Below, piece after piece: positions 12,336 to 15,267 of a stretch of DNA of 64,000 bases. This DNA comes from Promethearchaeota archaeon. Lineage in GTDB: Archaea; Asgardarchaeota; Lokiarchaeia; Sigyniarchaeales; SOKP01. A program made the translations under genes and the position numbers. A model generated the notes under the pieces. It did no database searches, was not told the origin of the DNA, and saw only the letters and a list, made by a program, of their open reading frames with translations. How positions within the stretch are numbered: position 1 is the first letter of the stretch; the number at the start of each line of letters is the position of its first letter. The DNA lies in assembly GCA_048938855.1 (NCBI GenBank), contig JBHLLT010000009.1:32001-96000 (forward strand), written 5' to 3'.

Positions 12336-12674
12336 CTAAAAGTAATATTTTGAATCAAAACGGTATGCTGCTCTTGTTAATCCCACGTAATTATCATTTA
12401 GTTTATAAAGCATTTTTCCATTTACAATCTTTTTTTGTAGATAATTGTTTTTTATATAATGATTCAATGATGAAACCATGGTACCCAAAGTAACAGCCCC
12501 TATAAATTCATGTTGCTTTTTTGTAACTCTTATCAATTCTAACTCAGAATGCCACTGTCCATCTAGAAGTGCCATTAATATTTCATTTTTTATAGGAGTT
12601 GTGATATCTTTTATTTTATTAAATAAGTTAGAGTAGTTGGGTTTATAGAATGGATTTTCTTCAAAATCTTCCAT
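12336..12674 (-). CDS. Hypothetical winged-helix-like protein
   Basis: 112 aa; IKNEILMALLDGQWHSELEL...YLQKKIVNGKMLYKL pattern; third gene of the co-oriented actin cluster. Confidence 0.6.
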   Translation of the reverse strand: MEDFEENPFYKPNYSNLFNKIKDITTPIKNEILMALLDGQWHSELELIRVTKKQHEFIGAVTLGTMVSSLNHYIKNNYLQKKIVNGKMLYKLNDNYVGLTRAAYRFDSKYYF

Positions 12675-12792: not shown

Positions 12793-13914
12793 TTATAGTA
12801 AATTTGGTGGTATTCCTTCATTATAATATTTCGCACGTGTGATCCAATTTTGAGAAAATTCAGGGATCATTGCTAATATTGAACCACCAATCCAGACAGA
12901 AAAAGTTCGCTCCATTGGAGCAATAATCCGGACTCCAAGATTTTTCTTTTTCCTTCTAGCAAGTTCTAATTCTAACTCCTGATAAATACGAGCTTTTAAA
13001 TTCGGAAACATGGAGGAACCTCCTGAAAGAAAAATGTTGTTTAACAGTTCTGGACGAATGTCCAAATCACATGATTCAATTACATCCATGATTGCGACAT
13101 GTAATGAATCTTCTTCTAACTCAGAGGATGGTTTAAACAATAGTTCTGGAACAACAAATCGCTCTTTATTAAGTGAAATTGTAGAACCATCAGGTAAAGA
13201 ATATTCTTTTTCATATTGTTCACTGCGTTTTAAATCTTCATTATAATCTAATGAAACAAAGCATGCTTTTTCTTTTAAAACTCTAACCAATTCTCTGCGT
13301 ATTGAAGAATCAACAGACCATCCAATTGATTCCAACACTTGTTCCATATAACGAGTTAATACTCTTCCCCCTGTATCTAAGATCCTAACGGCATGCCCTA
13401 ATTTATATCCCTCATATAATGGAACTATTCTTGTATTACTATCCCCAATCTCTACAATTAGGCCAGTTTGGAAACCCCCAGAATATAATGTTAACATTGA
13501 ATCTAACACCGGATAAAAAGCCATACATTGATATCGTTCTAAAAATAATTCAAATATTTTTTCTAAATCTTTATGCGGAAATAACGGATGTACAGCAAAT
13601 AATACATTAACAAGTGTTGGATCCACTCTTAAATTATAAAAGATATAGTCAATTATATTTGCCAAATGAGTCCAATCTACTACAATTCCTTTCTCAATTG
13701 GATGGAAAATCTTATACAATCCGATTGATTGAATCTCATCTCCTACATAAGTCTCATCTTCACGAGACGCTTTACCACTATAATTAACACCAACATCTTG
13801 ATATTTAGGTTTACCAACCATTGTCAGGAATACTTGAGAGGGCGTATCTTCGCCTGCAAATCCAATTTTTGTTGAAAACTGCCCAATATCAAGAACAACT
13901 GTAAGATTTCCCAT
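12793..13914 (-). CDS. Actin-family protein (Asgard actin-related protein)
   Basis: VVLDIG..STKIGFAGEDTP, YVGDE, PIEKGIVVDW, IVPLYEGY, KEKACFVSLDY, YSLPDG, ERFVVPELLFKPS, CDLDIR, LSGGSSMFP, FSVWIGGSILA. Confidence 0.95.
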   Translation of the reverse strand: MGNLTVVLDIGQFSTKIGFAGEDTPSQVFLTMVGKPKYQDVGVNYSGKASREDETYVGDEIQSIGLYKIFHPIEKGIVVDWTHLANIIDYIFYNLRVDPTLVNVLFAVHPLFPHKDLEKIFELFLERYQCMAFYPVLDSMLTLYSGGFQTGLIVEIGDSNTRIVPLYEGYKLGHAVRILDTGGRVLTRYMEQVLESIGWSVDSSIRRELVRVLKEKACFVSLDYNEDLKRSEQYEKEYSLPDGSTISLNKERFVVPELLFKPSSELEEDSLHVAIMDVIESCDLDIRPELLNNIFLSGGSSMFPNLKARIYQELELELARRKKKNLGVRIIAPMERTFSVWIGGSILAMIPEFSQNWITRAKYYNEGIPPNLL

Positions 13915-14043
13915 GCCTAAAGATTTCAGAATTTAATTTATGATAATTACCCTAAATAACTATATCTAATATACTATTTTAATTTTTAAAAAATACTAAT
14001 AAAGCTTTGGGTAAAAATAAAAAGAATAAAAATCTTTAGGTTT

Positions 14044-14736
14044 TTATTCTCCTCTCATGATCTTCTTCAAACGATTTAACTCATCTAACATTTCATCTCG
14101 AAGAGAACTCAATCCTCCACCGGCTTTTGGAGCAACTCCGCCTGTTGCAGGTGCAGGAGCTGGTGCAGGAGGTCCGGGTCGTTTTGCAAATGCTGGCGCT
14201 GCTGGTGGTCCAGCACTTGGAGCTTTAGGGGGACCCGCGCCAGGAGGTGCACTGGGAAGCCCACCACTAGGTGGCAATTTTGGAGCCGGAGGTAAAGTAG
14301 GTTTTTTAGGTGGTCCACCACCACTTGGGGGCGCAGTAGGAGGCATTGCTTTTATCGGAGGCCCTGTACCAGGAGGTTTAGGAGCAGAAGGAGGCCCACC
14401 ACTTGGAGGTGCTGGGGCTGCGGGAATAGAAACAGTAGGCGCTGCAGTAGGAGTTGAAGTAGGTGTTCCACTACTTAATAAAGAGAATAAAGTACTAGCT
14501 GCGGCAGTCTTGGCAGTATCACTGCTTGGGGTGACTATTTTTTTAGAGGAAGTACTCACAGTTTGAACCTCTTCAACAACAGAGACTTCTTTCAAATCTT
14601 TTTGAGCTTTTGCCAATGATTTGATAAAATCATTTATTCCTTTTATTGTGTCCTCTAAATCATCAGATAGACTCGTGAGTCCTTTTTTCATAAAATTAAT
14701 TACGCGTTCAATCTTTTTCTGTTCTTTTGAAACCAC
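14044..14736 (-). CDS. Proline-rich protein with N-terminal coiled coil and C-terminal amphipathic (WH2-like) helix
   Basis: GTG start with upstream GAGGA; Lys/Glu-rich helical N-terminus, P/A/G-rich middle, C-terminus GGGLSSLRDEMLDELNRLKKIMRGE. Confidence 0.8.
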   Translation of the reverse strand: MVSKEQKKIERVINFMKKGLTSLSDDLEDTIKGINDFIKSLAKAQKDLKEVSVVEEVQTVSTSSKKIVTPSSDTAKTAAASTLFSLLSSGTPTSTPTAAPTVSIPAAPAPPSGGPPSAPKPPGTGPPIKAMPPTAPPSGGGPPKKPTLPPAPKLPPSGGLPSAPPGAGPPKAPSAGPPAAPAFAKRPGPPAPAPAPATGGVAPKAGGGLSSLRDEMLDELNRLKKIMRGE

Positions 14737-15000
14737 GTTCTTCTCAATTCCTCTAATGTTATTAAATAATTGATTAAAGTAAAAATTACTATTTATAATC
14801 TTTATATTTTTATTATATTAATATGTATTTATAATTTTATTCCATTCTTAATCAAGTCTATAAATCTAAATATTACGTAGATCTAGAAAAAACGTTAATT
14901 ATTAAAAAACCTAAACTAATAATATTATATAACATATTTCATTAGTAAGTTTAAAATTATTAATATTTCAATTTTAAGAAATTAAAAAGGTTTGTATAAA

Positions 15001-15267
15001 ATGCCTAAGCGTGAACTGTTCATTAAACGGGTTTATGAAATTGTTAATGAGCTTAAAATCCCCCTAATCGATGAAAGAGTTTATGACAGTGTTAAATTCA
15101 ATACAGGGGCAGCTGTTGCAGCTGTAATTTTCAGGTTTGAGGAAGATGAATCTGTAATCCGTGGATTTCTTGGTCTTGCTGAATATTTTCATACAGTTGT
15201 AATAAAGCGTAAGGATGAATTCTATATTCCCCACGCTTCCATTCTCTTCAGACTTATAAGTGCTTAG
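15001..15267 (+). CDS. Small hypothetical protein, divergent from the actin cluster
   Basis: 88 aa from ATG 15001, globular-looking composition. Confidence 0.7.
   Translation: MPKRELFIKRVYEIVNELKIPLIDERVYDSVKFNTGAAVAAVIFRFEEDESVIRGFLGLAEYFHTVVIKRKDEFYIPHASILFRLISA

Follow-up and report, generated by a model that had tools for sequence, protein, structure and literature searches.

Gene X of a Lokiarchaeial genome belongs to a pan-Asgard family of proline-arm proteins whose end helix is a candidate actin-docking peptide

The window analysed here, 64,000 nucleotides from a Promethearchaeota archaeon of the class Lokiarchaeia (assembly GCA_048938855.1, contig JBHLLT010000009.1, positions 32,001 to 96,000), carries upstream of an actin-family gene a 230-residue reading frame that we call gene X. 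X belongs to an undescribed, pan-Asgard and roughly single-copy adaptor family whose proteins end in a near-invariant amphipathic helix at the tip of a proline-rich arm. Judged by its sequence and by the range of proteins that carry it, this end helix is a portable docking peptide. Actin binding is the leading single hypothesis for its role. By analogy with arcadin-2 and ParR, X may be the soluble, Lokiarchaeial form of an adaptor whose end helix docks in the hydrophobic groove of Lokiactin, a tentative proposal that we credit with a little less than even confidence.

Profilins and gelsolins are the main known regulators of the eukaryote-like actin of Asgard archaea, and cultured species build actin-filled protrusions. 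To our knowledge, no Asgard nucleator, elongation factor or membrane-actin linker has been identified. The X family, near-universal, single-copy and unnamed, with an invariant putative docking helix and a distribution that matches canonical Lokiactin, is a concrete and cheaply testable candidate for this missing link. If the partner were instead the ATPase Vps4, the family would be the first set of MIM-bearing adaptors outside ESCRT-III in archaea. Either outcome bears on how the membrane and cytoskeleton machinery of eukaryotes was wired before eukaryogenesis.

Architecture of gene X

X is a genuine gene. Its homologues number at least 198, all of them unnamed 'hypothetical' proteins of Asgard (Promethearchaeota) assemblies; they share almost invariant N- and C-terminal blocks around a middle of variable length and sequence. 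The GTG at 14736 is assigned as the start because residues 2-15 are conserved. The AlphaFold2 model, run on an alignment with 42 homologues, consists of a long helix at residues 4-49 (predicted local distance difference test, pLDDT, >90), a weak helix at 72-88, a disordered stretch over 89-208 and a terminal helix at 209-227 (pLDDT ~90). The model and the conserved terminal blocks bear out the succession of helix, proline-rich arm and end helix proposed in a first-pass annotation of this DNA. Its other descriptive points were all confirmed, namely an open reading frame (ORF) co-oriented with the actin-family ORF across a gap of 129 bp, three PPSGG and several GPP units, no run of PPP, and the C-terminal GGGLSSLRDEMLDELNRLKKIMRGE.

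The N-terminal helix is a probable assembly or anchoring module. Its invariant residues are K7, K8, R11, V12, F15, K18, G19, L20, L23, D25, L27, F37, S40, L41, K43, A44, D47 and L48, and in other Asgard families a transmembrane segment followed by a coiled coil stands in its place. The short motif that follows, AKTAAASTLFSLLS, is invariant at K76, A79, A80, T82, L83, F84, L86 and L87 and has counterparts in other classes (LFDFLEG, DLWSVLMG and DVFGMFS). The arm is built from variable GGPPxAP repeats, and homologues differ there in both length and sequence outside two fixed islands, LPPAPKLPP and FAKRP (residues 183-187).

Database searches place X in no described family. Pfam gave nothing above the cut-off for X, its two ends, its membrane-anchored relatives or the neighbouring protein c1, and the weak matches to CCDC53, SHOCT and Phage_Gp19 among these were set aside as insignificant. 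An ESM Atlas search with X returned solely its own unnamed Asgard cluster, a literature search for the motif strings found no match, and a search for longer fused proteins carrying the X C-terminus gave a single weak match (E = 1.1).

The GC content of the window rises to 0.50 at 14000-14499 because of the Pro/Ala/Gly codons of the arm. An antisense ORF of 169 residues (14057..14566, plus strand) lies opposite the arm; rather than a gene, it is a side effect of the GC-rich CCN/GCN/GGN codons there.

A single end helix on interchangeable anchors

The end helix is invariant in 120 close homologues of X. Across 15 lineages in which it is joined to different anchors, L7, E10, M11 and E14 (helix positions) never change and R17, L18 and K19 hardly ever do, which defines the core L..EM..E..RLK; hydrophobic and charged side chains are both present on the conserved face. 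A helix profile of 25 columns (A2) matches 214 of 251 Asgard genomes and 83 of the 89 high-quality ones, usually once per genome. Profile searches further recovered full-length relatives with the plan of X in other classes (families f2, f3, f4, f13, f20 and f22), all with an N-terminal helix, an LFxxL-type motif, a proline-rich arm and the end helix. The same helix also closes proteins made of a transmembrane segment, a coiled coil and a proline-rich arm in f6, f8, f14, f16, f17 and f27, as well as a polytopic membrane protein in f23. Its carriers measure ~230 residues when soluble, 270-356 when single-pass and 564 when polytopic. Since the same helix sits on interchangeable anchors, its partner is expected to be external to the N-terminal module and to be pan-Asgard.

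The distribution has gaps. Over the 251 genomes, the helix profile found none in f7, f10, f12, f18, f21, f24 and f27; a profile of the full-length membrane form recovered diverged versions in f27, f10 and f7, and none in f21, f24, f18 and f12.

Several minor observations concern the helix and its carriers. Many genomes of the same family as this one hold a second, weaker match to the helix profile. In this genome the second-best match of the helix hidden Markov model (HMM) lies outside the window, at C6:130478-130933 (plus strand), where a 151-residue, Cys-rich, zinc-ribbon-like protein carries the helix motif internally (FLRDEMINELNNLREIIRNN). The membrane-anchored relatives at loci L046, L047, L044, L045, L049, L050 and L053 have a coiled coil with a conserved G-x-I-[ST]-x-x-x-F/Y...Y-x-x-R-L-x-x-I pattern; this segment is cytoplasmic and has a weak SHOCT-like Pfam match (E = 0.19). 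The same segment also terminates ABC ATPases and polytopic proteins in f21 and f24. Pfam found neither a steadiness box nor a CdvA-like hairpin in the membrane forms at E<=1.

Lokiactin as the candidate partner

The proposed adaptor would work in three parts. A localisation or assembly module, in X the 45-residue helix that probably works with c1 and elsewhere a transmembrane anchor with its coiled coil, would set the site. The disordered proline-rich arm, 100-130 residues long, would reach out from it, and the 19-residue C-terminal amphipathic helix would serve as the docking peptide. This helix would insert into the hydrophobic (barbed-end) groove of Lokiactin, and actin monomers or filament ends would be tethered at the site chosen by the N-terminal module.

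Such an arrangement has a precedent. The C-terminal helix of arcadin-2 binds the groove of crenactin, as ParR binds ParM (PMC5173319). In arcadin-2 of Pyrobaculum calidifontis (PDB 5LY3; PMC5173319) a short C-terminal helix is the sole contact with actin and lies in the hydrophobic groove, and the same holds for ParR on ParM. Like arcadin-2, X has a conserved helix, amphipathic in its case, at the C-terminus; the arcadin-2 gene has an actin-family gene as its neighbour, and X lies beside an actin paralogue in one family. Unlike arcadin-2, whose helix uses a tryptophan (PMC5173319), X presents L/M/I and invariant Glu residues in what would be a putative contact with actin. X also differs in its long proline-rich arm, its interchangeable anchors and its pan-Asgard spread, and it is not tied to an actin gene cluster.

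Phyletic distribution and conservation both lean towards actin rather than Vps4. In the X-bearing representative genomes in which an actin was found, that actin is 67-99% identical to the Lokiactin of this genome, and in the sampled X-bearing families the groove (residues 143-148, 167-169 and 340-356) shows essentially no variation. In exactly the families without detectable X (f12, f18, f21 and f24) the best actin is just 51-55% identical to Lokiactin, and these actins share the groove changes T148V, K350P, T351A/E and W356V/L. Two of the four, f21 and f24, keep both Vps4 and ESCRT-III proteins with MIM1-like tails. Strong two-domain gelsolins follow the same split between X-bearing and X-less families. 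The end helix is identical across family f1, in which Lokiactin is 96-99% conserved; in the same genomes the MIT domain of Vps4 is 58-69% identical (29% in f2) and the ESCRT-III tails vary. Helices alpha2 and alpha3 of the MIT domain likewise vary among families that share the end-helix core.

Several points weigh against Lokiactin as the partner. Neither the Pfam scans nor the PDB sequence search with the helix profile, which covered chains of at least 20 residues, revealed a similarity of X to WH2, to arcadin-2 or to a solved actin-binding peptide. The X-less families are divergent in general and may amount to just one or two clades, in which case very few events could underlie the correlation. 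In f7, f10 and f27 the helix has diverged and the actin groove is unchanged, and the register-specific pattern E-hydrophobic-x-x-E-hydrophobic-x-[RK]-L-K is common to the X helix and the tails of Asgard ESCRT-III. In a published co-immunoprecipitation with Lokiactin, the significantly enriched proteins named are profilin, gelsolins and an Arf GTPase (bioRxiv 10.1101/2025.11.30.690169).

A wider version of the proposal is distinctly unlikely in our estimate. Under it, X and the membrane-anchored proteins related to it would supply the factors for actin assembly or anchoring that Asgard archaea seem to miss, with the helix gripping the barbed-end groove of Lokiactin, the arm acting as a flexible and possibly profilin-recruiting spacer, and the N-terminal modules fixing actin to membranes. 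If true, the family would be a pre-eukaryotic functional counterpart of tethers of the VASP, formin and WASP type that arose with canonical actin and independently of WH2.

Vps4 or another protein as the partner

The end helix could instead be a MIM1-type ligand of the MIT domain of Vps4, through which X and its membrane relatives would bring in the ESCRT ATPase or control it at the site set by the N-terminal module, an idea that we regard as rather doubtful. A MIM1 follows the consensus (D/E)xxLxxRLxxL(K/R). Located at the extreme C-terminus (209-227 of 230) after a 120-residue disordered arm, the X helix sits where a MIM1 does. The tails of the Vps2/24/46 class of ESCRT-III (CHMP1/2/3, IST1), which the MIT domain of Vps4 reads, are placed in the same way after a flexible linker and share the hydrophobic-xxx-L-xx-L-K pattern. 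The spacing of M11, L15, L18 and K19 reproduces the L..L..LK of MIM1; the acidic and Arg positions of the consensus are taken instead by R/K/Q and Glu. Asgard tails also have Glu where eukaryotic MIM1 has Arg. This genome encodes two ESCRT-III proteins, each with a similar helix at its end (...KIAELEKELNRLKSDE and ...LKDEIDKLRKELEG); one of their genes adjoins that of an MIT-carrying Vps4, and X shares the hexamer ELNRLK with the genome's own ESCRT-III. The tails of ESCRT-III in 16 further genomes read E-hydrophobic-x-x-E-hydrophobic-x-[KR]-L-K, with six of the seven conserved X positions in register. When the helix profile was compared by hhalign with two ESCRT-III class alignments, it fell on their C-terminal helices (P = 0.0027 and 0.011). 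By a position-specific scoring matrix of the helix, 65% of 31 Asgard ESCRT-III tails exceed the 95th percentile of 6208 background C-termini (Mann-Whitney p ~1e-17), and in a whole-genome scan with the helix HMM ESCRT-III ranks 8th of 6208 ORFs and 2nd among the C-terminal matches. Family f18 lacks both ESCRT-III and X. MIM1-like tails had been predicted in Asgard Vps2/24/46 by Lu et al. 2020 (PMC7240154).

The likeness to MIM1 mentioned as a caveat in the first-pass annotation keeps Vps4 a live rival, but in absolute terms the scores are low: at most 10 bits, against ~50 for members of the X family, with hhalign probabilities of 4-11%. About one third of the ESCRT-III tails beat their own shuffles, much of the signal being amphipathic E/K/L composition, and unrelated proteins score as high as ESCRT-III in the HMM scan. 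X itself has no ESCRT-III core: Snf7 gave no match, and hhalign of X against the ESCRT-III alignments reached probabilities of 2.5-7.7%, the 7.7% being a weak N-terminal alignment. Unlike MIM1, the X helix is basic or neutral where MIM1 has Asp/Glu, has Glu where MIM1 has Arg, and conserves extra hydrophobic residues (L7, L12 and positions 21-22); it is also far more conserved than either the ESCRT-III tails or the MIT domains, which vary widely among families with an identical helix core. X genes are not located in the vicinity of ESCRT genes. A PDB sequence search with the helix profile, confined to chains of at least 20 residues, yielded no MIM peptide. Besides f21 and f24, where ESCRT-III and Vps4 occur without X, the helix is present in f11 and f25 with no Snf7 match, each of the two being a single incomplete genome.

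Comparisons across the phylum do not decide cleanly between the two partners. ESCRT-III is found in 237 of the 251 genomes and is missing in f18 and f12; its presence and absence over these genomes gave no clean separation of the actin and Vps4 hypotheses. A comparison of MIT domains among families with a canonical, diverged or absent helix showed no clear covariation. As a side observation, genomes G021, G032, G051, G078 and G100 (f18) and G010 (f12) have no ESCRT-III (Snf7) match; G021, G100 and G010 have no Vps4 orthologue, solely Cdc48-like ATPases, and their actin is 51-53% identical to Lokiactin.

It is also possible, though on the unlikely side, that the helix docks on some other highly conserved Asgard protein or self-associates, as in VASP, and that X is a scaffold unrelated to actin or ESCRT. 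That no known motif, family or structure is significantly similar to X would suit such a scaffold, as would the mixture of hydrophobic and charged residues on the conserved face, which is found in many helix-groove and coiled-coil interfaces. So would the steady gene neighbour c1, with its unmatched fold, and the housekeeping genes beside the membrane forms (RpiA, a PIN-ATPase-KH protein, a tRNA endonuclease), which carry no functional hint. On the other side, a helix of 19 residues at the tip of an extended disordered arm, carried by anchors that can be exchanged, is more what one expects of a recruitment peptide than of an oligomerisation domain. Nor can c1 be what the helix binds, as it was not found in most families with membrane forms. 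The phyletic profile, moreover, fits the Lokiactin system.

The end helix is not a recognisable WH2 motif

WH2 motifs consist of a short amphipathic helix, a non-helical linker of ~5-6 residues and then LKK[T/V], with a spacing of ~6. The overall plan of X resembles that of WH2 proteins (WASP/WAVE, WIP and the VASP GAB motif; PF02205) in combining an oligomerisation or targeting module, a proline-rich region and a helix followed by L-K-K-hydrophobic, and the first-pass annotation had read its C-terminus as WH2-like. The detailed comparison contradicts this. Profile searches by hmmscan with whole X and with its last 35 and last 85 residues gave no WH2 match at E<=10, and the PDB search with the helix profile returned no WH2 chain, only chance matches (best E = 0.35). 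Residues 209-227 are predicted as one continuous helix in which L15 and L18 are 3 residues apart, so that the spacing from the hydrophobic triad to LK is 3 and not ~6. E10 and E14 are invariant acidic residues of X foreign to WH2.

Nor is LKKI itself conserved. Elsewhere in the family it reads LKKL, LKTL, IKEI, LKAL, LKSL, LKRL, LKKY, LKAF, LREI or LKEI, and across the 15 lineages the conserved L18-K19 are followed by K/E/T/A/S/R and then I/L/Y/F; L18 and K19 are kept, and the second K and the final residue vary. Assignment of the end helix to WH2 was rejected on these grounds: no profile match, short spacing and variable final positions. X likewise lacks the PPP runs of classical profilin binding. 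The WH2-like motifs described in Asgard archaea so far lie inside gelsolins only (LVDV, LKDV and LRRV; PMC9433394, bioRxiv 10.1101/2025.11.30.690169).

Gene order and the neighbouring actin paralogue

The features of the locus are collected in Table 1. The actin-family gene downstream of X encodes a divergent actin-related protein (Arp), one of three actin-family genes in this genome. Lokiactin is the 441-bit one, on contig C79; the Arp scores 294 bits in the same genome scan. Its best PDB matches are actins (E ~1e-85). Relative to yeast actin it carries S14Q, G15F, Q137D, D154E and H161R, and its hydrophobic groove is altered at nine positions (A144S, S145G, R147F, T148Q, S348M, L349I, K350P, T351E and M355N). 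On the strength of these catalytic-site changes, the nine groove substitutions and only 41% identity to the Lokiactin of its own genome, its sequence identifies it as a divergent Arp-like paralogue and not as Lokiactin. It is order-specific: orthologues (at least 48% identity) were found solely in f1 and f2 of the sampled phylum.

Table 1. Features of the X locus (window coordinates).
Feature	Coordinates	Strand	Remarks
Gene X	14044..14736	-	230-aa proline-arm adaptor, soluble 'type A' form; GTG start
X N-terminal long helix, residues 4-49	14590..14727	-	AlphaFold2 pLDDT >90
X short motif AKTAAASTLFSLLS, residues 72-88	14473..14523	-	Low-confidence AlphaFold2 helix; conserved
X Pro/Ala/Gly arm, residues 89-205	14122..14472	-	Disordered, pLDDT ~45-60
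Fixed arm island LPPAPKLPP, residues 148-156	14269..14295	-	
X C-terminal docking helix LSSLRDEMLDELNRLKKIM, residues 209-227	14056..14112	-	Putative docking role
X-Arp spacer, 129 bp, AT-rich	13915..14043	-	Oligo-T just past X stop; TATA-like stretches before Arp ATG
Actin paralogue (Arp-like), 373 aa	12793..13914	-	Pfam Actin 299 bits, residues 5-367
c1, 91-aa alpha/beta protein	14992..15267	+	Steady neighbour of soluble X; divergent orientation here

The first-pass annotation had gone further and proposed X and the Arp as a cognate pair of actin paralogue and regulator, possibly a precursor of the systems of nucleation-promoting factors (NPFs) and Arps. The idea of X as a WH2-bearing NPF dedicated to the adjacent Arp is now very improbable and is largely refuted. 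What speaks for it is the co-orientation across a short gap and the position of X upstream of an Arp orthologue on the same contig in ~45 of 49 f1 genomes. Yet X directly adjoins the Arp in just ~15 genomes; in most f1 genera a gene for a PIG-L-family deacetylase, at times with a second unrelated gene, lies between them. In 13 loci from seven genera a block of ~10 kb is collinear (histidine kinase, topoisomerase, winged helix-turn-helix (wHTH) protein, Arp, optional PIG-L, X, c1, phosphoribosyltransferase), and the adjacency of X and the Arp is therefore inherited context.

Linkage, kept in f1, is lost beyond it. In the sister family f2 both genes are present, 43-70 kb apart or on different contigs, and relatives of X occur in lineages that lack this Arp altogether. 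Together with the absence of the defining features of WH2 and the altered groove of the Arp, these observations argue against a cognate pair, and nothing ties X to Arp activation. The Arp is probably the neighbour of X by inheritance and not its target. The spacer (Table 1) suggests that X and the Arp may be separate transcription units; a scan of it for promoters and terminators of bacterial type was not informative for an archaeon.

The intervening PIG-L/LmbE-family deacetylase is 242-248 residues long (for example L005:2321-3067 and L019:2342-3070). Its gene is absent at 13915-14043 here and in some congeners, where it was lost or never inserted. Directly downstream of the Arp, in 13 of 13 f1 loci compared, lies an ORF of 112 residues without a Pfam match (12336..12674, minus strand in this window). 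This ORF accompanies the Arp more steadily than X does; the wHTH label given to it is a fold not confirmed.

The 91-residue neighbour c1

c1 is the steady companion of the soluble form of X. The two are at most 550 bp apart in 39 of 49 f1 genomes; c1 adjoins X in at least 12 f13 genomes, adjoins it or lies no more than 1.7 kb away in all four f4 genomes, and is also its neighbour in f3, f20 and f22, in an orientation that differs between lineages. The search detected no c1 in most of the membrane-form families (0 of 26 genomes in f6, 0 of 16 in f23 and 3 of 59 in f8), and the f8 exception is a single genus whose c1 is not beside an X-like gene. On this ground c1 is not taken as the partner of the end helix; it probably serves the soluble N-terminal module.

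Structurally, c1 is modelled by AlphaFold2 as a small alpha/beta fold with high confidence (pLDDT 92.5, predicted template modelling score 0.83). It matched nothing in Pfam or among PDB sequences, and in fold searches Foldseek found nothing at E <= 0.001 and VIA-align reached a Z of 4.3 at most, which makes c1 a confidently predicted fold with no match among solved structures. The c1 family is small and confined to Asgard archaea (23 representative clusters); some f1 genomes hold two to four paralogues of it, located away from X-like genes.

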